Shown piece by piece: positions 38,403 through 50,397 of a DNA stretch of 64,000 nucleotides (within the stretch, counting starts at the first letter, position 1; each line of letters opens with the position of its first letter). A program made the translations under genes and the position numbers. The notes under the pieces were generated by a model. It ran no database searches. It was given only the letters and a program-made list of their open reading frames with translations, and had not been told where the DNA came from. This DNA is from an uncultured Chloroflexia bacterium (GTDB taxonomy: Bacteria > Chloroflexota > Limnocylindria > Limnocylindrales > CSP1-4): positions 17,173 to 81,172 of the forward strand of contig CAWFJD010000008.1 of assembly GCA_963816135.1 (NCBI GenBank). Reading direction: 5' to 3'.

Positions 38403-40018
38403 ATGGGTCCAGCGCGAGGTCCGGCTTGGGGACTTCTGCTGACGACTGTCCTGGCATTCGCGGCCGCCGGCTGCGGAAGCGCCGCCCCATCCGCCACGAG
38501 CGTCACGGGGGCTACGCCACCGCCTTCGATACGAATGACTCCCACGCCCTGGTCCACCGCCGCAACGGCGGCCACGGCCGCCACGCCGCCCGCCTCCCTG
38601 CCCCCGACACCGTCCCCTACTCCCGATCGGCCGGTCTCGTTCTTCGCGGCGGTCGTGGCCAGGTACGACGAGCCCCGCGAGTCGCTCACCGCGGCGCAGC
38701 TCGCATCGGGCCTGCAGGATGGCAAGGTCCTGGTGCCGTGCGAGTTCAACTTCATCGGTCTGCCGGACATCTCCGTCTCGATGCCGCCGGCGACTCCCTG
38801 CGTGCCGATCGCGCAGATGACCGAGCGAGTCCGAAGCGCGGCCGGCACCCTTGGCTTGCTGCCACCGGGCCTCGTCAGCGCTTCGGTCAAGGTCCTCTCG
38901 ATCGACGGCGCGGATCTGTTCGGCTCGCCGACCAAGCGAACCAGGTCCTACCCGCTGTATGCCCAGTCGGCACGTCGTCGGCGACTGGGCCGACTACCGG
39001 CAGGACGACATCCGAACCCTGATCTCGACCGGCGACACCTGCCCCGACCGGGGCGTTTCGTTCATGGCGGTCACCAAGAAGCAGGGCTGGGATTGGGTTC
39101 TCGATGGCGGCTCCGTCCGCTACCGCGGCTTCAAGACGAGCGCCTGGGATTGGCCGGTGCCGATCCTGTCGCGAACCGGCAACGCCGGCCGGGTGAGCGC
39201 CCTCATCTCCGACAACGACGTGAGCGTCAACGACTTCGAATGCCCGATGATCTCGACCTGGACCCAGCACAACACGGGCATGGTGTTCAGCATCGACCCA
39301 CGCGTCGGGCCGCTGCTGGCGAGCAAGGCCGGCCTCAAGGCCGTGACGCTCGGCTCCAACCACATAACCGACGCCGGCCTCGAAGGGAGTCCGCCAGACG
39401 CTCAGCTATCTCGACGCGGCGGGGATCAAGCACACCGGAGCCGGCACGAACGCTTGCCGATGCCCTGGCGCCCGCGGTCGTGGACGCCAACGGACTCAAG
39501 TTCGCCTTCGTCGGCTGGGACGACGTCAGCGGCTCGCGCGCGGCGACGGAGACTCGCCCGGAGTCGCGCCCATGACCGACGAGAACGTGTGCGCCTCGAT
39601 CAAGGCGGCTCGGGCGGAGGCGGATGTCGTCATCGCCATGCCGCAGTGGGGCTGGCCGGAGTACCACGCCACGATCACCAAGACCCAACGCACGCAGCGG
39701 CAGTTCATCTACGACTGCGGCGCCGACGGAATACTCGGCAGCGGAACCCACTGGGCTTCCTGGGTCTCCATCTGGCCGTCGGCCGCTGAGACCCATTTCG
39801 CCATCGGCAGCCACGGCAACTTCCTGTTCGATCAGAGCTGGAGCCGCCAGACGATGGAAGGCGTGATCGTCGAGGCGACCTTCTCCGGAAAGAAGCTCGT
39901 CCAGTTCCGTCTCCATCCCTATGCCGTGGTCCAGGGCGCCCAGCCGTGCCTGCTGGATCCGACCACGGACGGCGCCTTCGTCCTGAACCAGGTCTGGCAC
40001 GTCAGCGACGTCCAGTAG
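38403..40018 (+). CDS. CapA/PgsA-family metallophosphoesterase-fold lipoprotein (several indels)
   Basis: Lipobox AAGC, TGDT, NDFECP, GSNHITD, MPQWG.EY, SHGNFLFDQ. Confidence 0.78.
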
Positions 40019-40091
40019 CCCGTCGCGGGCCGCGGACGAGAGGCCGGCGGCACGAGGGACTCCGGCCGCAGGTCTTCGCGCCAAATCCTAT

Positions 40092-40121
40092 TTGACACTC
40101 GCCCGGGTAAACGGTTACTGT
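40092..40121 (+). promoter_or_regulatory. Sigma70-type promoter of the aro operon leader
   Basis: TTGACA (40092)-18 bp-TACTGT (40116). Confidence 0.6.
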
Positions 40122-40133
40122 CCGAGGACCGAT

Positions 40134-40172
40134 ATGGACACGTACTTCTACTTTTATCGCAACCCGGCATGA
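40134..40172 (+). CDS. Putative Tyr/Phe-rich attenuator leader peptide MDTYFYFYRNPA
   Basis: GAGG RBS; ATG GAC ACG TAC TTC TAC TTT TAT CGC AAC CCG GCA TGA between the promoter and a terminator upstream of DAHP synthase. Confidence 0.82.
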   Translation: MDTYFYFYRNPA

Positions 40173-40218
40173 CCGTTCCCGGAGCCTAGACCCGGGAGCG
40201 CGGGTCGTGTCGGGTGCC

Positions 40219-40244
40219 AGCAGAGGCAATGCCTCTGCTTTTTT
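40219..40244 (+). terminator. Intrinsic terminator (attenuator) in the aro leader
   Basis: AGCAGAGGC-AAT-GCCTCTGCT followed by TTTTT. Confidence 0.85.
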
Positions 40245-40313
40245 GTTACCTGATCAGATCCTATCTCCGGCCCGACGCCGAACGAGCCGGTCAGCCAACC
40301 AGGAGACCGCCAC

Positions 40314-41390
40314 ATGATCATCGTGATGTCGATGGGAGCAACCGAGGAGCAGGCGACAAATGTTCGCGACCAGCTCCGCTCATACAACCTGCAAGCCCAC
40401 GACAACTACGGGACGCAGCGTGTGGTCATCGCGGTTCTCGGAGACGTGGCTCCGGTAAGGGATGTTCTGATGGGCAAGCTTTCGGTCATGCCGGGCGTGG
40501 AATCGGTCACGCCGATCACCCGGCCCTACAAGCTCGCTTCGCGAGAGTCGCATCCCGAAGACACCGTCATCGAAGTCCTGGGTAAACGGATCGGCAACGG
40601 GACGCTGACCATCATGGCCGGACCTTGCTCCATCGAAGGCCGGGACATGATGATCGAGACCGCAAGGGCGGTGGCCGCGGCCGGAGCGACGGTGCTGCGC
40701 GGCGGCGCGTTCAAGCCACGCACCAGCCCTTACTCATTCCAGGGATTGGGTGTCGAGGGGCTCAAGTACCTCGCCGAGGCGAGCAAGGAGACGGGCCTGC
40801 CCACCATCACCGAAGTGATGGAACCCGGCCAGGTCGAGGTCGTGGCGCGCCACGCGGACATCCTTCAGGTGGGCACCCGGAACATGCAGAACTACTCGCT
40901 GCTGACGGCGGTGGGCAAGGCGGGCCGGCCGGTGATGCTCAAGCGCGGTTACGGAGCCACGATCGAGGAGTGGCTCATGGCGGCCGAGTACATCGTCTCG
41001 TCGGGCAACCCGCACGTGATCCTGTGCGAGCGGGGCATCCGGACCTTCGAGACGTACACCCGAAACACGCTGGACCTGACGGCCGTGCCGCTTCTCCACC
41101 ACCTGACCCATCTGCCCGTCATCGTGGACCCGAGCCATGCCACCGGGAAGCGCTGGCTGGTCAAGCCCATGGCCCTCGCGGCCGTGGCCGCCGGGGCCGA
41201 CGGGATCATGGTCGAGGTCCATCCCGACCCGGACCAGGCCCGCTCCGACGGCGAGCAGTCGCTCACCTTCGACCAGTTCGGCGACATGGCCCATGCCCTG
41301 TTCAAGATCCACGAAGAAGTCCGCACCCTGATCAAGGACCCGTTCGCGATGACCGGCCCCGTCGCCGTGGACGGCGCGAGCAAGCACTAG
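40314..41390 (+). CDS. aroF: DAHP synthase type I-beta with N-terminal ACT/ferredoxin-like regulatory domain
   Basis: [45 protein letters not shown]. Confidence 0.96.
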
Positions 41391-41393
41391 ACG

Positions 41394-42764
41394 ATGATCG
41401 CGCCGCAGCTCGCCGGGGAGGGGTCCCGGACTGTACTGCCCGCCATGCGCCTGCGTGGCGAGCCGCGCCTGCCCGGCGACAAGTCGATCTCGCATCGGGC
41501 CCTGGTCCTGTCCGCCCTGGCGGAGGGCGAGTGCCTCATCACCGGTGCCGGGGATGGGCGCGACGTCCAGGCCACGGCGGCGATCGTCGCCGCGCTGGGG
41601 GCGCGCGTGGAGCGGCTCGGCGAGGATGGCTTGAACGTGGATTACCGGGTCTCGTCGCCCGGGCGGGCAGGACTCCACGAGGCCGAAGGGATCCTCGATT
41701 GCCGCAACTCCGGCACGAGCCTGCGGCTGTGCGCGGGCCTGCTCGCCGGACTGCCGTTCATGTCGGTACTGGACGGCGACGCTTCATTGCGGACCCGTCC
41801 GGTGGCCCGTATCATCGAACCGCTGCGCTCGATGGGCGCGGCTTTGTTTGGGCGGCGATCGGACTCCCTCCCTCCACTCGTGGTGATAGGCCGTTCCCCG
41901 CTGGCAGGCATCGACTACGCGACCAGAGTGCCGAGCGCCCAGGTCAAGTCGGCGATCCTGCTCGCGGGCCTGAACGCGGAGGGGCCCACAACCGTGCGCG
42001 AGGCCGTGGCCACGCGCGACCATACCGAGCGGATGCTGCGATCCCGCGGGGTTGCCGTACGCCGAGGAGCCAGCGCGGGAGGCGAGTCAGTGTCCTGGAC
42101 GATCGACGGTGGAGCGCGGCTCGAACCCGTGAATGAACGGGTTCCGGCCGATCCTTCCGCTGCCGCGTTCTGGCTCGTCGCGGGCGCCGTCCATGCCGAC
42201 GCCGAGATCACACTCCGGGCCGTTGGCGTCAATCCCACCCGCCGGGCGGCCATCGATCTGCTGCTCCGAATGGGGGCCCGGATCGAAGAGACGTCCGTTG
42301 GACCGGCTGTCGCCTCCGTGGCGGGCAGCGAGGCGGGCGAGCCGCTTGCGGACCTGATAGTCCGGTCCAGCGAGCTGCCGCGATAGACCTCGGTCCTGTG
42401 GACGTGGCGGCCGCGATCGACGAGATTCCAATCCTCTGCCTGGCCGCGACGCAGGCTCGCGGCCGGACTACGATTCGAGGCGCCGGCGAGCTTCGGAACA
42501 AGGAATCCGATCGCATCGCCGGTATCGTCGAAGGCCTGCGAGAAATGGGAGCTCGCATCCGACGTCGACGGCGACGACATTTCGATAGACGGTCCTACTC
42601 CGCTCGTCGGCGCCGCGACCCGGACGTTCGACGATCACCGCCTGGCGATGACTTTCGCGATCGCCGGCTTAATTGCGTCGGGCTCGACGTCGATCGACGG
42701 CGCGGACAGCGCGTCAGTCTCGTACCCGGGCTTCTTCGCAGAGATGGAAAGGCTCCGAGCATGA
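41394..42764 (+). CDS. aroA: EPSP synthase (indels near 42385 and 42560)
   Basis: [52 protein letters not shown]. Confidence 0.94.
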
Positions 42765-43702
42765 CCCACCGTGTCGTCCTGATCGGCCATCCGGTCGCCC
42801 ACTCCTTCTCCGCCGCGATGCAGCAGGCTGCGTTCGACGCCCAAGGAATCGACGCTCGATACGAGCTGTGGGATCGGCGGCCCATGGACCTCGCGGCCGC
42901 GATCAACGAGCTGCGAGGCGAGGAATTCCTCGGCGCCAACATCACGATCCCCCATAAGGAGCACGCGGTTCCGCTGGTGGACCGCTTGACCGAAGAGGCC
43001 CAGGCCACGGGCGCGGTCAACGTGATCTCGCGAGACGGCAAGAAGCTGGTCGGCCACAACACCGACGTGCCCGGCTTCAAGGTTGCCCTGGACAAGCTCG
43101 TCGGACGCCAGAAGATGCCCCGCTACGGCGTGGTGCTGGGCGCCGGAGGCGCCGCCCGGGCAGTCGTCTACGCGCTCATCACCGAAGGCTTCCAGCGCAT
43201 CGTCATCTTCAACCGGCATCTCCATCGCGGCGAGGCCCTGGTCCGCCACTTCAACAAGAGCGCCGCCCACATGGACCTGCGCGCCATGCCGTGGCACGAG
43301 TCGGTCCTGGAAGCGGAGCTCTCCAAGACGAAGCTCCTGGTCAATGCCACCGCGCTCGGCCTGGTAGCCGGCGAAAGCCCCATCCCGGCGGATCTGCTGC
43401 CGCCGGATCTCATGGTCATGGACCTCATCTACAACCCGACGCAAACGCAACTCCTCAAGGACGCGCTGGCCGCCCGCGACACGGTGCTCGGCGGCGAGCT
43501 GATGCTCCTCCAGCAAGGGGCGCGGGCGTTCGAGTTGTGGACGGGCAAGCCCGCGCCGATCGACGTCATGCAAGTCGAGCTCGAGCGCGTCCGCGAACAT
43601 GGACTCCAGCAGGTCCCGATCGACATGGGCGCTGCCGGCAACGGCACGTCCGGAGTCGTCGCACCGCCGGCCGAGCCCGCCGCGCCCGGCGCGGCCTCCT
43701 AA
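42761..43702 (+). CDS. aroE: Shikimate dehydrogenase
   Basis: [35 protein letters not shown]; ATGA overlap with aroA. Confidence 0.93.
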
Positions 43703-43712
43703 GACCGCGGAA

Positions 43713-45037
43713 ATGGGCCGCCTCCGATTCCTGACCGCGGGTGAGTCGCACGGACCCGCACTCGCGGCCACGATCGAAGGGGTGCCCGCGGGCCTGCGCG
43801 TCACCGCCGAAGCGATCGAAACGGACCTTGCGCGGAGGCAGCGCGGTTACGGCCGCGGTGCCCGGAGCACGTCGATCGAGCATGACCGCGCCGAGATCCT
43901 CTCCGGGGTTCGCCACGGGTTGGCCCTGGGCTCGCCGATCCTCCTCCTGATCCGCAACCGCGATTGGGAGAACTGGACACGGGTGATGCAGGTCGAACCG
44001 CTGACCGATGAGCAAGCGGCCGAGCTGGCTGCCCTGGCAGCGGGTGGCGACAAGCGCGCGGCGCCGATCACGAGGTTGCGAGCCGGCCACGCGGACCTGG
44101 CCGGGGCCGTGAAGTACGGCTTCGACGACGTCAGAAACGTCCTGGAACGGGCCTCCGCTCGCGAGACGGCCGCTCGGGTGGCCGCGGGTGCGGTGGCTCG
44201 GGCCTTCCTCGCCGAGTTCGGCATCGACGTCTGGTCACATACCACCGCCGATCGGTCCGGTGTCCGCCGAGCGCGAGCTCGAAACGCGGTCACGCCAGGA
44301 GGCCGAGGCGAGTCCATTGCGCTGCCTGGACGCCGCCGCGGAGCAATCGATGATCGAGTGCATCGATCGAAGCCCGCTCCTCGGGCGACACGGTCGGCGG
44401 CGTCTTCGAGGTGGTGGCGACCGGCGTGCCGATGGGCCTCGGCAGCTACGTCCAGTGGGATCGCCGTCTCGACGCGGCCCTCGCCGCCGCGGTGATGAGC
44501 ATCCCGATCGTCAAGGGCGTGGAGTTCGGGCTCGGGTTCGAGCAGACGCGCCATTTCGGCTCTCAGGTGATGGACGTCATCGAGGGCCGGGACGGGCCCG
44601 ACTGGCGGCGAGCCTCCAACAACGCGGGCGGCCTCGAGGGCGGCATGTCCAACGGCCAGCCGATCGTCGTGCGCGGCGCCGTCAAGCCGATCTCGACACT
44701 CCCCCGGCCGTTGCCGTCCGCGGACCTGCTCACGGGCGAGCCCGTCGAGAAGGCCCATTACGAGCGCAGCGACATCAGCGTCGTGCCCGCCACCGGCGTC
44801 GTGGCAGAGGCCATGGTTTGCCTGACCCTCGCGGACTTCCTCCTCGACAAGTTCGGCGGGGACTCCATGGCGGCCGTGGTCGAGGCGGTGGAGCGCGACC
44901 GACGCCGGGTTGCCGCCGGAGCCGCAGGAGCTGCCGGAGCCGCAGGAGCCGCCGGAGCCGCCGGAGGCCCAAGCGCCGCCTCAGCGACGCGGGATCGCCC
45001 AGGCTCGCCCGTCGCCATTCCGGCCGAGGGCGAGTAG
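43713..45037 (+). CDS. aroC: Chorismate synthase (indels near 44250 and 44375)
   Basis: [53 protein letters not shown]. Confidence 0.94.
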
Positions 45038-45039
45038 CC

Positions 45040-46695
45040 ATGGACGTCGTTCTCGTTGGGCTTCCGGGCAGCGGCAAGAGCGCCGTGGGGCGCCGCCTGG
45101 CGACGCGTCACCACGCCCAGTTCATCGATCTCGACGAAGTCATCGAGCGGCGGGCCGGCAAGACCGTATCCGCCATCTTCGCCAGTGAAGGCGAGCCCGG
45201 GTTCCGGCGCCACGAACACGAGGCGGTCCTCTCGCTCGGACCAGCGGACCCGGAACCGGAAGTGCGGCGCGTCATCGCCACGGGCGGCGGCGCCGTCATC
45301 GACCCGCGAAATCGCTGGCTGCCTGTATCGCGGCCGCTTCCCGGTCTGGCTCGACGGCGCTCCGGAGCTCCTCGCCAGCCGCCTCGAGTCGGAGCGCCAA
45401 CGTGCGGCCGCTCGTGGCCGGCAGCGATCCACTCGGCTCGCTCCGCGAGCTGGCCGCGGAACGGCGCCGCTTCTACTCCCCTGCCCTCCAGATCAGCGGC
45501 GCCGCGCAGATCGACGCGATCCTCCGCGCCCTGGACCAGCGAATCGGCGAGGGGGTCTCGGACGGGGCCACTCTCTTGCGGGCGGACACGCCGATCGGCC
45601 GCGTGGAAATCGGCCACGGGATCGCGGCCACGGCCGTGGAATCGGCACTCACCCGGGCGGAAGCGTCGGCGGGCAATCCTGATCGCGGAACCGCAGACGT
45701 GGGAGGTGGCCGGCAGCGGGATCGCGGCGTCCCTCTCGTCCGCCGGCTGGCAGGTCGAACGGATACTCCTGCCCCGCGGCGAGGACGCGAAGCGGATGGC
45801 GGTCGTCGAGTGGACCTGCAGCGAGCTCGCGAAGCTCGAGGTGGATCGGGGCGAGACGCTGGTCGCGATCGGCGGCGGCGCCCTCACCGACGCGGCCGGA
45901 TTTGCCGCCGCCACGTACCTTCGCGGAATCCCGATCGTCAACGTGCCCACGACGCTGGTCGGCCAGATCGACGCGGCGCTCGGCGGCAAGACCGCGGTGG
46001 ACATCCCCGAGGGTAAGAACCTGATTGGCGCATTCCATCAGCCGGCGGCATTCATCGCCGACACTGCCTTTCTCCGGACGCTGCCTGCCCGCGAGCGCCG
46101 AGCCGCCCTCGCCGAGGTGGTCAAGATGGCCGCACTCGGCGACGAGCGCCTCCTCGACCTCGTCGAAGCTGAGGGTGAAGCCTTCGCCAATGGCAGCGAC
46201 GACCCGATCGACTCGGGCGCGGCCGCGGAGATGGTCGAGCGCTGCGCCTGGGCCAAGGTGGCAGTCGTCGTGGTGGATGAGCACGACGTCGGCGTCCGGA
46301 GGACCCTGAACCTGGGCCACACCCTGGGCCACGCGATAGAGGCCGCGGCCGGTTACAAGGACCTGCTGCACGGCGAGGCGATCGGCTACGGCCTCCGGGG
46401 AGCCTTCGCGATCTCGCTGGCGATGGGACTCACCAGCCGCGAGCGATCGCACCGGTTCAACACCCTGCTGGACCGTCTGGGCCTGGGCATCGAGCCGCCG
46501 GGCCTCGAGCAGGACGCCGTCCTCGAGCGGATGGCCCGAGACAAGAAGCACGCGCTGGGCAAGCTCAGCTGGATCCTGCCCACGGCGAACGGAGTGGAGA
46601 TCCACAACGACGTTCCGCCCGCGGCAGTGGAGTTCGGCCTCATGGCGGCTCTGCGGTTCAGCGGAGAGCACCGCCCCACCGGGGAGCCCGTCTGA
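45040..46695 (+). CDS. aroKB: Fused shikimate kinase / 3-dehydroquinate synthase (AroK-AroB; indels)
   Basis: GLPGSGKS, DLDE, GEPGFR, ATGGG, then GGGALTD, LRGI, PTTL, GGKT, KNLIGAF, LNLGHTLGH, LLHGEA; no start/stop junction evident between the domains. Confidence 0.85.
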   Translation: MDVVLVGLPGSGKSAVGRRLATRHHAQFIDLDEVIERRAGKTVSAIFASEGEPGFRRHEHEAVLSLGPADPEPEVRRVIATGGGAVIDPRNRWLPVSRPLPGLARRRSGAPRQPPRVGAPTCGRSWPAAIHSARSASWPRNGAASTPLPSRSAAPRRSTRSSAPWTSESARGSRTGPLSCGRTRRSAAWKSATGSRPRPWNRHSPGRKRRRAILIAEPQTWEVAGSGIAASLSSAGWQVERILLPRGEDAKRMAVVEWTCSELAKLEVDRGETLVAIGGGALTDAAGFAAATYLRGIPIVNVPTTLVGQIDAALGGKTAVDIPEGKNLIGAFHQPAAFIADTAFLRTLPARERRAALAEVVKMAALGDERLLDLVEAEGEAFANGSDDPIDSGAAAEMVERCAWAKVAVVVVDEHDVGVRRTLNLGHTLGHAIEAAAGYKDLLHGEAIGYGLRGAFAISLAMGLTSRERSHRFNTLLDRLGLGIEPPGLEQDAVLERMARDKKHALGKLSWILPTANGVEIHNDVPPAAVEFGLMAALRFSGEHRPTGEPV

Positions 46696-46696
46696 C

Positions 46697-47155
46697 GTGA
46701 TCACAGTCCTGGTCCTCAACGGACCCAACCTGAACCTTCTCGGAACCCGCGAGCCGGAGATCTACGGGCGGACCACGCTCGCCGAGATAGAAGCCGGGCT
46801 GCGCGCTCGGGCGGCCGAGCTGGGACTCGGGATCGACTGCTACCAGTCCAACCACGAAGGAGCGCTGATCGATCGGCTGCAGCGCCGGGACTTCGATTGG
46901 GCGATCGTCAACGCCGGCGGCCTGACCCACACGAGCGTGTCTCTCCGCGACGCCCTCAAGGGCATCGACGTGCCCTTCATCGAGGTCCATATCTCGGACC
47001 CTGACACGCGCGAGCCGTTCCGGCGGGTCAACTACCTTCGGGACATCGCAGCGGCGAGCATCGCCGGCAAAGGGCCGGCCGGCTACACCATGGCTCTCGA
47101 CGAAATCGCCCGCCGAGCTGCCCTCCCGAGCTCCGGCCCGGGGAAACCCGCATGA
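46697..47155 (+). CDS. aroQ: Type II 3-dehydroquinate dehydratase
   Basis: LNGPNLNLLGTREPEIYG, QSNHEG, THTSVSLRDA, EVHIS. Confidence 0.96.
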   Translation: MITVLVLNGPNLNLLGTREPEIYGRTTLAEIEAGLRARAAELGLGIDCYQSNHEGALIDRLQRRDFDWAIVNAGGLTHTSVSLRDALKGIDVPFIEVHISDPDTREPFRRVNYLRDIAAASIAGKGPAGYTMALDEIARRAALPSSGPGKPA

Positions 47156-47436
47156 CGGACGACCTCGACGCCCTTCGAAACCAGATCGACTCCCTCGACC
47201 GGGAGATCGTCCGTCTCCTCAACGACCGGGCCCGTCTCGGCCTGGCCGCGGGCAAAGTCAAAGCTCAGTCGGGCAGGCCGATCGCGGACCAGGACCGTGA
47301 GCGCGAAGTCCTCGTCCGCGTCGCCATGGCCAACAACGGCCCGCTTCCGCAGGATGCGCTGCTGACGCTGTATCGCGATCTGATCGAGACCATCAAGCGT
47401 CTCGAAGAACTCGAGAAGTCCGGCAATACTGCCTAG
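47152..47436 (+). CDS. Chorismate mutase, AroQ class, monofunctional
   Basis: LDALRNQIDSLDREIVRLLNDR, K...DQDRE; position at the end of the aro operon. Confidence 0.9.
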   Translation: MTDDLDALRNQIDSLDREIVRLLNDRARLGLAAGKVKAQSGRPIADQDREREVLVRVAMANNGPLPQDALLTLYRDLIETIKRLEELEKSGNTA

Positions 47437-48270: not shown

Positions 48271-50397
48271 ATGAGTGCAGCTGCTGTATCCAGGGGAATT
48301 CGCTCGGGGTGGGCACGATTGCGGCTGCTCGCCGCGCGTTCACGCCGGTCACCCGCTCAGATCGCGTCGAGACTCGACCCCGTTCTGCTCGTCTTCCTGA
48401 TCTGGACCCTCGCCTATCTGCTCATCACCCGCGACCCGCAGCCGGTCGTGGTCGATGTCTGCGTGGCGCTGGCCGCCCTGGTGACCGTCCAACAATTGTT
48501 CACGCTGCGGCGCGCCAGGACGGCGGATCGGGCCCGCCGCAAGACGGAGGCCAGGCTTGGCTGGCTCGTCCGCAACTCCTCGGACTTCATCATGGCCGTG
48601 GACAAGACCGGCGCCCTGGACTACGTCAGCCCATCGGTGGAGCGGCTGCTCGGAAAACCGGCCATCCAGCTCATCGGCATGCCGCTGAGCTCGCTGGCTC
48701 ACCCCGACGACGCGACCGAGCTCGACGCACTCCTTTCGCGGGCGCTCAACGGACCCGGATCGAGCTTCACGGGCGAATGGCGTGTCCAGCAGGCCGACGG
48801 CGGCTGGCTCCCGGTCGAAACCGTGGCGAGCAGTGCCAGCGGCGACGTCGAGACCAAGGGCGTGGTGCTGAACACGCGCGACCTCAAGGAGCGCAAAGCG
48901 CTCGAGCAGAAGCTGACCTTCCAGGCCTTTCACGATCCGCTGACCCGGCTCGCGAACCGGAGCCTCTTCCGGGAGCGGGTCGAGCACGCCCTGGACCGGC
49001 GGCACGTGGGCGACATCGCGGTCCTGTTCATCGACCTCGATAACTTCAAAACGATCAACGACAGCCTGGGCCACGCGGCCGGCGACCACGTGCTGGTGGA
49101 GACTGCCCATCGCGTCCGCTCTACTCTCCGTGCCGAGGACACGGCCGCTCGACTCGGCGGCGACGAGTTCGCGGTCCTGCTCGAAGAAGCCGACGTCACC
49201 TGCGCGGCCAGAGTCGCCGAGCGGATTCGGGAAGCTCTGGGCACGCCGTTCTGGGTTCTCGGCCAGGAAGTCTTCGTCAGCGCGAGCATCGGCATCGCCA
49301 TGCGCGAAGACGGCGACAGCGCGGGCGACCTGCTGCGCAACGCGGACGTGGCGATGTACACGGCCAAGACCAAGGGCAAGTGCCGCTTCGAGATCTTCGA
49401 GGCGGCGATGCACGACACCGTCATGGCTCGCCTGGGCATGGAGGCCGAACTGCGCCGGGCCATCGAGCGCCATGAGTTCGTCGTCTACTACCAGCCCATC
49501 GTCCGCCTGGATACGGCCGAAGTGATCGGCGCCGAAGCGCTGGTTCGCTGGCAGCACCCCACCCGCGGGCTCGTGCCGCCCGTCGAGTTCATTCCCCTCG
49601 CCGAAGAGACCGGCCTGATCGTGCCCCTCGGCGGCTGGATCCTGCGCCAGGCCTGCCAGCAGCTCGCCGAGTGGCAGCGAATGCGCGGCGGCGGCGAGCC
49701 GTTCGTGATGAACGTCAACCTCTCGTCGCGGCAGCTCGTCCGCGACCAGATCGCCGAGGAAGTCGCGGCCGCGGTCGACGAGTCGGGCATCCGGGCGAGC
49801 TGGCTCGTCCTGGAAGTCACCGAGACGGTGCTCATGGCCGATCCTCCGGCCGCCGCCACGGCGCTGGCTCAGATCCGGGACCTGGGCGTCCGAGTCGCCC
49901 TCGACGACTTCGGCTCCGGCTACTCGTCCTTGAGCCACCTCCGGCGCTTCCCGATCGACATCGTCAAGATCGACAAATCCTTCGTGGACGACGTCGCACG
50001 GGACGGTGTGGAATCGGCCATCGCCCGGAGCATCATCGAACTCGGGCGGGCGATGAAGATCCAGACCGTCGCCGAAGGCATCGAAGCCGGCGAACAGGCG
50101 GAGCGGTTGCTCGACCTCGGTTGCGAACTCGGCCAGGGCTTCTTCTTCTCCCGGCCGCAGGACCCGGCGATGTGGCGACAGCTTCTGGAACGGACCAGCG
50201 ACTCGCCTCTCGCACCCAGGGTCGAAGACTCCGGCCTCCCCGAAGGCCTCGCGGGCATGAGTCGCACGTCCAACCCCGACCGTAAGCGCAGAGCCGGACG
50301 AACCGGCTCGGCGAAGTCGCCCGCTCCGGTTCCCGCGTCGGCCGGATCGGAGCCGGCCGGATCGCTCAAGGCTTCTCGATCCCGGGACGCCGCCTGA
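48271..50397 (+). CDS. Membrane PAS-GGDEF-EAL diguanylate cyclase/phosphodiesterase
   Basis: Two TM segments, PAS (YVSPS, HPDD), HDPLT, RLGGDEF, EALVRW, DDFGSGYSSL, KIDKSF, VAEG. Confidence 0.95.
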   Translation: MSAAAVSRGIRSGWARLRLLAARSRRSPAQIASRLDPVLLVFLIWTLAYLLITRDPQPVVVDVCVALAALVTVQQLFTLRRARTADRARRKTEARLGWLVRNSSDFIMAVDKTGALDYVSPSVERLLGKPAIQLIGMPLSSLAHPDDATELDALLSRALNGPGSSFTGEWRVQQADGGWLPVETVASSASGDVETKGVVLNTRDLKERKALEQKLTFQAFHDPLTRLANRSLFRERVEHALDRRHVGDIAVLFIDLDNFKTINDSLGHAAGDHVLVETAHRVRSTLRAEDTAARLGGDEFAVLLEEADVTCAARVAERIREALGTPFWVLGQEVFVSASIGIAMREDGDSAGDLLRNADVAMYTAKTKGKCRFEIFEAAMHDTVMARLGMEAELRRAIERHEFVVYYQPIVRLDTAEVIGAEALVRWQHPTRGLVPPVEFIPLAEETGLIVPLGGWILRQACQQLAEWQRMRGGGEPFVMNVNLSSRQLVRDQIAEEVAAAVDESGIRASWLVLEVTETVLMADPPAAATALAQIRDLGVRVALDDFGSGYSSLSHLRRFPIDIVKIDKSFVDDVARDGVESAIARSIIELGRAMKIQTVAEGIEAGEQAERLLDLGCELGQGFFFSRPQDPAMWRQLLERTSDSPLAPRVEDSGLPEGLAGMSRTSNPDRKRRAGRTGSAKSPAPVPASAGSEPAGSLKASRSRDAA

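Follow-up and report, generated by a model that had tools for sequence, protein, structure and literature searches.

Leader-peptide attenuation of transcription is textbook regulation. In the enterobacterial trpL and pheL attenuators, the leader RNA has four segments, of which segment 3 is common to the antiterminator and the terminator. Literature searches for an aromatic attenuator in Chloroflexi or Chloroflexota, or for Limnocylindria in that context, returned no description, which agrees with an earlier reading of the present DNA (the sequence-only reading) that had called to mind no such system in this phylum. PMC4833913, in the parts covered, holds nothing relevant on such leaders. In Corynebacterium glutamicum, the aroR-aroF system has a leader peptide with Phe-Tyr-Phe before an operon headed by DAHP synthase (PMC11802643, PMC4046766), and its attenuator was predicted in Mentz et al. 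2013 (PMC4046766). PMC11802643, summarizing Neshat et al. 2014, reports that aroR-aroF read-through goes up when ribosomes stall as Phe becomes limiting. In the same species, the ilvB leader is cited in PMC4046766 as having a leader peptide without a ribosome-binding site (RBS). In mycobacteria, as outlined in Canestrari et al. [quoted passage not shown] The closest described system to the locus presented here is C. glutamicum aroR-aroF. With one aromatic case on DAHP synthase already described, in Corynebacterium, the present element is ordinary as a member of its class.

The window, i.e., the whole stretch of 64,000 nucleotides that was analyzed, comes from a bacterium of the Limnocylindrales, an abundant and uncultured order of soil and freshwater. 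Its genome has a size of 4.0 Mb and a GC content of 68%. The DNA was traced to 18 sequencing runs, all of DNA and each with a small share of it (<=0.15); no RNA run was among those listed. All features given below lie on the forward strand. The gene aroF (40314..41390) is the first of an operon and encodes a type I-beta DAHP synthase with a ferredoxin-like domain at its N-terminus (Pfam PF00793, E 2.6e-82, and PF18152). The remaining operon (41394..47436) contains aroA, aroE, aroC, aroK-aroB, aroQ and a chorismate mutase gene. By Pfam matches, the downstream products are, after DAHP synthase, EPSP synthase, shikimate dehydrogenase, chorismate synthase, shikimate kinase and DHQ synthase, type II dehydroquinase and chorismate mutase, and the list of shikimate genes given in the sequence-only reading is thereby borne out from aroF to the last gene. 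The operon thus covers the shikimate pathway and chorismate mutase, and is a biosynthetic operon for the amino acids that the leader would sense. In the window, aroA and aroC each appear as two overlapping or adjacent frames.

With the AroF protein as query, 30 loci with AroF identities of 58-100% were found in 41 genomes from two genera of one order, the window's own and a second one. The whole element, consisting of a TTGAC and a TAnnGT hexamer, a leader ORF (ORF1), a long hairpin and a terminator, is present in all 30. In the window, the -35 hexamer is TTGACA (40092..40097), with TTGAC invariant in the alignment, and the -10 hexamer is TACTGT (40116..40121; family consensus TAnnGT, from conserved alignment columns), with a spacer of 18 nt between the two. 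The promoter proposed earlier is supported by the conservation of both hexamers in 30/30 loci, though a simple sigma-70 scan did not call it. From the usual spacing, transcription would start at about 40127-40129, and the leader mRNA is probably leaderless or has about 6 nt ahead of the start codon. The distance from the -10 hexamer to the ATG is 12 nt in the window and 7 nt in the second genus, the latter being compatible with a leaderless mRNA; loci without ATG have GTG at the same distance from the hexamer. A GAGG (40124-40127) had previously been read as an RBS. It begins and ends 2-5 nt past the -10 hexamer, at or before the expected transcript start, and is unconserved in relatives, so that this assignment is not supported.

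ORF1 (40134..40172; MDTYFYFYRNPA*) has 12 codons and ends with a UGA stop within the 5' arm of the long hairpin. Its codons, ATG GAC ACG TAC TTC TAC TTT TAT CGC AAC CCG GCA TGA, include five Tyr/Phe codons in succession (40143-40157), exactly as had been noticed from the letters, and a short ORF with such a run of codons for the regulating amino acids is typical of trpL/pheL-type leaders. Across the 30 AroF-anchored loci, all of which carry it, ORF1 has 11-12 codons, of which 3-5 are for Phe or Tyr. The first three or four residues are free, Phe and Tyr are exchanged for one another, and synonymous changes and whole-codon indels occur; this is the pattern expected of a translated ORF under selection for aromatic codons. 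Relatives in both genera clearly keep the mini-ORF with its Tyr/Phe codons, which is what the check suggested with the sequence-only reading had asked for. A larger set of 143 loci with a complete ORF1 gave 112 distinct nucleotide sequences, and 97 of these have 3-6 Phe/Tyr/Trp codons among 10-14 codons, with a genome-wide F+Y+W share of about 4.5%. Trp codons are found in 7/112. The proposed dual Tyr/Phe sensor would thus be an aromatic one in a wider sense, not a strictly Tyr/Phe device. TTT, a rare Phe codon, makes up 52% of the Phe codons in the leaders and 17% genome-wide. A constant distance, two codons and one base, separates the last aromatic codon from the CCCGG that starts the stem. 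When the window's genome (69% complete) was screened for mini-ORFs rich in one amino acid at most 160 nt upstream of a hairpin with T>=5, only ORF1 and one unconvincing match were obtained.

The distribution of the element was followed with an IUPAC pattern that combines the terminator arms with the UGA and the base of the hairpin. In a species-representative genome collection, this pattern was found in at least 117 stretches, nearly all labelled Chloroflexota, Limnocylindria/Limnocylindrales, Limnocylindrus or Aquidulcis. One match labelled Rubrobacteraceae was a chance match within unrelated sequence. AroF is encoded on the same strand 30-130 nt downstream of the element in 141/147 loci; in five of the other six the contig ends too early, and the sixth was matched falsely. 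In an even sample of the class (401 genomes), the exact pattern occurs in 81/137 genomes of the window's family, in 13/16 genomes of the order's second family and in none of 247 genomes of three other families, and a reversed-pattern control gave 0 everywhere. Diverged versions are present in genera of the same family that have no exact pattern (L148, L149 and L150). In three loci from other families of the class, aroF stands directly behind another gene, and no aromatic mini-ORF was found within 1 kb upstream of it (L153-L155). In addition, one genome has a second aroF-like gene with a leader of its own (L152), MSQYWYFI*, of 8 codons. The hairpin and terminator sequences of L152 differ, and the layout is shared: a long hairpin with the stop at its base, then a terminator after a linker of 2 nt. 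By sequence, L152 is a diverged paralogous leader in which the layout recurs.

The long hairpin (40159..40217) is formed in the minimum free energy (MFE) fold by an outer stem, 40162-40174 with 40203-40215, which encloses an inner stem at about 40176-40182 with 40192-40200. The 5' arm starts within the last three codons of ORF1. The outer pairing around an inner hairpin had been picked out by eye. The MFE of 40121-40250 is -59.2 kcal/mol (z = -4.64), and 0/200 shuffled sequences are equally stable. The hairpin is present in the MFE fold of 133/133 distinct leaders. Covariation, which had been proposed as a check, also supports it: in the unbiased 30-locus alignment, 85% of cells are paired and 35-50% with slid partners, a pairing figure that is lowered by the alignment being partly one column off for the second genus. 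There are 33 double-sided changes, a level reached by 0/500 shuffles. RNAalifold on a MAFFT alignment of the 133 leaders recovered the outer stem alone, because the inner stem is misaligned.

Directly behind the hairpin follows an intrinsic terminator (40219..40245), found by both the terminator scan and the fold, where a U-tailed terminator had been suspected. It has a stem of 9-10 bp (AGCAGAGGC/GCCTCTGCT), a loop of 3 nt and a T-run followed by GTT, and its stem-loop (40219-40239) is the sole terminator-like site in 39500-41000. The arms are invariant in 30/30 anchored loci except for one A>G, and L148 has a compensated base pair (GGCAG...CTGCC). Counting both strands, T>=5 runs number 172 in the whole genome, and a GC-rich hairpin closely precedes 26 of these. 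With just 26 such sites in a genome of 68% GC, the terminator is not a chance feature. The spacer to aroF (40246..40313; 30-130 nt in 141 loci) contains a Shine-Dalgarno-like AGGAG at about 40301-40305, and the scan found no promoter-like site in it, so aroF needs read-through. An intrinsic terminator thus separates the leader ORF from the first structural gene, with no promoter between the two.

One unpaired base lies between the long hairpin and the terminator in the window. Measured from the helix extended by its flanks, this linker is 0 nt in 40, 1 nt in 36, 2 nt in 32, 3 nt in 12, 4 nt in 4, 5 nt in 8 and 6 nt in 1 of the 133 distinct leaders, i.e., 0-2 nt in 108 and at most 3 nt in 120; the 5-nt linkers form one clade. 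The abutment is not unique in this 68% GC genome, as a helix predicted to be stable (-23 to -33 kcal/mol) stands no more than 3 nt away from 3 of the 25 other terminator-like sites as well. Five sites were inspected as possible further attenuators with abutting helices, and all were poly-T contig ends or coding sequence.

A second frame, ORF2 (40169..40189; MTVPGA*), overlaps ORF1. Its ATG shares the ATGA at 40169-40172 with the ORF1 stop, and after six codons the frame closes with TAG (40187-40189), which lies in the apical hairpin loop. In a set of 122 distinct hairpin-plus-terminator sequences, the start is ATG in 118 and CTG in 4. An in-frame stop after exactly six codons is found in 111 (TAG in 72, TGA in 27 and TAA in 12), and six sequences with seven codons and two with five differ by whole codons. 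The loop context is highly variable, and close relatives differ solely in the choice of stop codon. In L065, a one-base difference joins ORF1 and ORF2 in frame, ending at the same apical stop. Exceptions are L109 (a one-base deletion), L099 (an early stop) and L149 (ACG for ATG), and by eye the apical in-frame stop is missing in 3 of 95 matches of the 401-genome class sample; ORF2 thus appears dispensable in some lineages. The GTGA and GTAA apical loops could be GNRA tetraloops that are kept for RNA reasons. On balance, we think that the apical stop is selected as a stop, which would point to translation up to the apex of the hairpin and no further. ORF2 and the abutment of hairpin and terminator are features new in the present analysis.

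A trpL/pheL-type design, to which the sequence-only reading had likened the leader, includes an antiterminator that shares bases with the terminator when the ribosome stalls. No antiterminator helix had been recognized by eye, and none appears in any computed fold. When the 5' part of four leaders was blocked to mimic a ribosome with its A site on codons 2 to 13, the mean pair probability of the terminator stayed at 0.94-0.98 for each of the 13 ribosome positions. Likewise, L149 and L152, two divergent leaders, have no alternative fold, and their terminator always forms. The best RNAduplex partners of either terminator arm reach just -6 to -14 kcal/mol, at positions that differ between the genera. 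Other ways of coupling the leader to aroF were also considered and rejected. A +1 frameshift at UUU-UAY could bring the ribosome into a frame open through the terminator; one clade has stops in all three frames before the terminator, the frame is closed in 2/19 loci of the window's genus, and there is no conservation of the slippery run. Translation control of the mycobacterial style would have the codon stretch pair with the ribosome-binding site of aroF; for this pairing, the means were equal to those of a reversed-sequence control, both means being inflated by one sequence pair without a duplex.

The comparison of relatives, above all the conservation of ORF1 and its linkage to aroF, supports well the proposal that a ribosome-read Phe/Tyr attenuator acts over the whole shikimate operon, and we put the probability that the element is a ribosome-mediated (leader-peptide) transcription attenuator of the aroF-led operon at about 0.85. 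The quantities sensed would be charged tRNA-Phe and tRNA-Tyr, and in some relatives tRNA-Trp as well. Transcription would start a few bases ahead of ORF1, which would be translated without a Shine-Dalgarno site. With plentiful aromatic aminoacyl-tRNAs, the ribosome would reach the UGA within the 5' arm of the long hairpin, restart at the overlapping AUG and read the six codons of ORF2 as far as the apical-loop stop. The hairpin would thus still be unzipped when RNA polymerase transcribes the terminator, 1-3 nt further on, and the terminator would then fold and end the transcript before aroF. ORF2 would in this way provide six more codons during which a ribosome is on the 5' arm, while the polymerase covers the approximately 30 nt to the release point, and its stop would keep the ribosome out of the terminator. 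When Phe or Tyr is scarce, the ribosome would stall at codons 4-8, with its front edge at most about 4 nt into the hairpin, and the hairpin would stay folded.

In toeprinting, the stretch protected by a ribosome measures about 15 nt, counted from the first base of the P-site codon. By this measure, no more than about 4 base pairs would be lost to a ribosome held at the last aromatic codon and none to one held at the earlier codons; with a ribosome at the UGA, or at the apical stop, the hairpin would be fully open. The folding of the hairpin is the only structural difference between stalled and completed translation, and for this reason a folded hairpin is assigned to read-through and an unzipped one to termination. 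The direction follows from the need of a biosynthetic operon to go up when Phe or Tyr is short, as is reported for C. glutamicum aroR-aroF. The folded hairpin would then be an antiterminator that shares no bases with the terminator. The base of a completed terminator stem lies deep within the RNA exit channel, and most likely a rigid, GC-rich helix located 0-3 nt from that base cannot follow the stem into the channel; the lower pairs of the terminator would compete with the lower pairs of the hairpin and so fail to form in time. We infer the regulatory direction, the restart from ORF1 to ORF2 and this steric step. The exclusion of the terminator by the hairpin is argued from the geometry of RNA polymerase, while thermodynamic folding forms the terminator throughout. 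The 5-nt linkers of one clade (8/133) and the abutting helices at 3/25 other sites are counted against it, and nothing relevant as a precedent for an upstream hairpin that lowers termination was found in the portions of the literature covered. As a whole, the combination of attenuator, relay from ORF1 to ORF2 and hairpin as steric antiterminator has, in our estimate, a little less than an even chance of being correct, and blocking of the adjacent terminator by the hairpin, taken as a step on its own, is a tentative proposal with the odds leaning against it.

The leader could follow the same attenuator logic with a hairpin that acts in a non-steric way, through modification of RNA polymerase in cis, through binding of a protein or through tertiary or alternative pairing that is invisible to nearest-neighbour folding. 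The put RNA of HK022, for example, binds and modifies RNA polymerase in cis. The outer stem and the terminator arms are invariant in 30/30 loci, beyond what pairing needs and with neighbouring positions saturated, and the motif GCAGAGGC, which is the same as the terminator 5' arm, recurs as an unpaired bulge in L152; together with the lack of an RNA antiterminator, these observations suit a hairpin of this kind. However, the two overlapping reading frames also constrain the outer stem, there is no protein or polymerase contact to name as a candidate, and a pseudoknot between loop and terminator finds no covariation, as the apical loop varies while the terminator arms are constant. We consider a non-steric hairpin unlikely. 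Lower still is the probability of a leader without a regulated switch, in which a constitutive leaky terminator and a stable 5' hairpin fix expression or stabilize the mRNA and the mini-ORFs are by-products. The lack of an alternative fold is what such a leader would predict, but its aromatic codons would then hardly be selected, as they appear to be from the free exchange of Phe, Tyr and Trp and the variable flanks in 112 distinct sequences; start codons, ATG or GTG, are kept at a fixed distance from the -10 hexamer, and in C. glutamicum a functional analogue has been described on the same gene. An unregulated leader is therefore judged improbable.

Two further readings place the decisive contact elsewhere in the leader. 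A ribosome on a start codon in the 3' arm of the hairpin (the conserved GUG at 40206-40208, or downstream starts) might block the terminator. An ORF from the interval between apex and terminator does span the terminator in 127/129 distinct leader-plus-spacer sequences, in 21 of the 129 this ORF ends at a TGA overlapping the aroF ATG, and L152 likewise has a terminator-spanning ORF by eye. Neither the frame nor the end is conserved, though, as 79 enter aroF in various frames and 24 stop earlier. With a terminator that is stop-free in any frame and DNA of 68% GC, such ORFs are expected by chance. The GUG becomes CUG or CGG in some clades, and the start would be buried in the hairpin just when the leader ribosome is stalled; read-through would therefore occur with plentiful aromatic tRNAs, the wrong direction for a biosynthetic operon. 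This makes a role for such a ribosome quite improbable, both where it would cover the terminator 5' arm and where, as in pyrBI, it would translate through into aroF. The aromatic-codon stretch could also act as a long-range antiterminator, lengthening the hairpin by pairing with the terminator 5' arm (CUUCUACU with AGCAGAGG), until the leader ribosome undoes this pairing. Partly by hand, 7/8 pairs were counted in the window and most relatives and 9/10 in a single clade; in that clade, the flanks form UUCG:CGAA pairs as well, and the terminator stem loses its first base to them. On the other hand, a stalled ribosome would cover this stretch, so that starvation would terminate, and the pairing is never preferred over the terminator in minimum-energy folds. 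It is down to 6/8 in one clade of the second genus, and neither L152 nor the leaders that contain Trp or Arg codons have it; pyrimidine-rich Phe/Tyr codons pair with any purine-rich stretch. Of all the readings weighed here, this one appears the least probable, and very little chance is given to it.

The leader-peptide attenuator favoured here resembles the enterobacterial trpL, pheL-pheA and pheM-pheST systems in its leader ORF with cognate codons, its terminator before the first structural gene and its presumed sensing by ribosome position. Unlike in these systems, the hairpin and the terminator of the Limnocylindrales leader share no base, and the common pathway is controlled rather than a terminal branch. 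When 39000-41500 was run through cmscan against Rfam at E<=10, three weak and unrelated matches came up, and no leader family (Phe_leader, Trp_leader) or riboswitch family. With C. glutamicum aroR-aroF, the locus shares a Phe/Tyr leader directly upstream of a DAHP synthase operon. It differs from aroR, here compared by description only, in belonging to another phylum, in its five aromatic codons and overlapping second ORF and in having no antiterminator. The mycobacterial polycysteine ORFs, as far as the preprint cited above describes them, are similar as leaderless sensory mini-ORFs at the 5' end of a biosynthetic operon in high-GC Terrabacteria, whereas the Limnocylindrales locus has a canonical terminator between leader and gene.

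As an attenuator, the element would add one-leader regulation of the entire common aromatic pathway in Limnocylindrales. Its design is unusual, with no competing fold, the stop of an overlapping ORF held in the hairpin loop and a hairpin flush with the terminator, and this design recurs in a diverged paralogue. That it combines a non-overlapping antiterminator, i.e., a helix 0-3 nt from the terminator, with a relay of two ORFs, an aromatic sensor followed by a six-codon 'unzipper', is a rather doubtful proposition. It is similarly doubtful that the layout conserved across this order of uncultured Chloroflexota, and in the diverged paralogous leader, reflects a non-overlapping antiterminator. 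If blocking by position alone were true, translation and termination would be coupled without any shared RNA segment. This would offer a simple rule for building or recognizing attenuators, and such attenuators would be missed by present search methods because these look for alternative pairings. At about 115 nt, the element is small and would make an easy test object in vitro.

In one same-family genome, the second AroF-like gene (locus L152) is preceded by a diverged 8-codon leader, MSQYWYFI followed by a stop, which has a promoter, a hairpin and a terminator of its own. The main aroF of that genome (L151) has no leader and is located behind another gene. At the related locus L065, a single 17-codon frame, MNPYFYFRRPGMTVPGS followed by a stop, corresponds to a fusion of the two short leader frames of the window, ORF1 (40134-40172) and ORF2 (40169-40189), and terminates at the stop in the apical loop of the hairpin.

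The region between the attenuator terminator and aroF also varies among the relatives. At L148, an imperfect tandem-repeat array, with units like GGCGCCAGGGACGGCGCCAGGAACGGTGTC, is inserted here, and approximately 250 nt separate the terminator from aroF; the terminator of this locus contains a compensated base pair (GGCAG...CTGCC). In 5 of the 19 same-genus loci (L002, L005, L009, L010 and L016, the last with two copies), a small palindromic insert, consisting of AGCCAACC, 4-6 nt and GGTTGGCT, is found in this spacer directly ahead of the aroF Shine-Dalgarno sequence. A remnant of this insert, in which the first half alone is retained, is present at approximately 40293-40301 of the window. 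The insert may represent a mobile mini-repeat, or it may act as a translation element. In addition, stretches resembling the 5' arm of the hairpin, GCCCGACC and GCCGGCAGGCC, have been observed in the spacer of the window (40246-40313) and in most same-genus loci. These stretches could pair with the 3' arm of the hairpin in read-through transcripts, and an effect on aroF translation is possible.

Within the aro operon, EPSP synthase is divided over two frames, 41394-42386 and the start of 42398-43702, the latter of which runs on into shikimate dehydrogenase. Chorismate synthase is likewise divided over 43599-44495 and the start of 44188-46695, a frame that continues with shikimate kinase and DHQ synthase. 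Either frameshift errors introduced by the assembly, in a genome that is 69% complete, or genuine fusions could account for the split frames. The upstream neighbor of the aro locus (38403-40018) appears to be split as well; the Pfam match of frame 39572-40018 is confined to the C-terminal portion of PGA_cap (PF09587), and the overlapping frame 38403-39575 has no Pfam match. Downstream of the operon, a gene encoding a PAS-GGDEF-EAL protein (c-di-GMP turnover) is located at 48271-50397. Elsewhere in the same genome, on the minus strand of contig C24 around position 82883, a short unique stretch lies between long poly-T runs; this arrangement is probably an assembly artefact.
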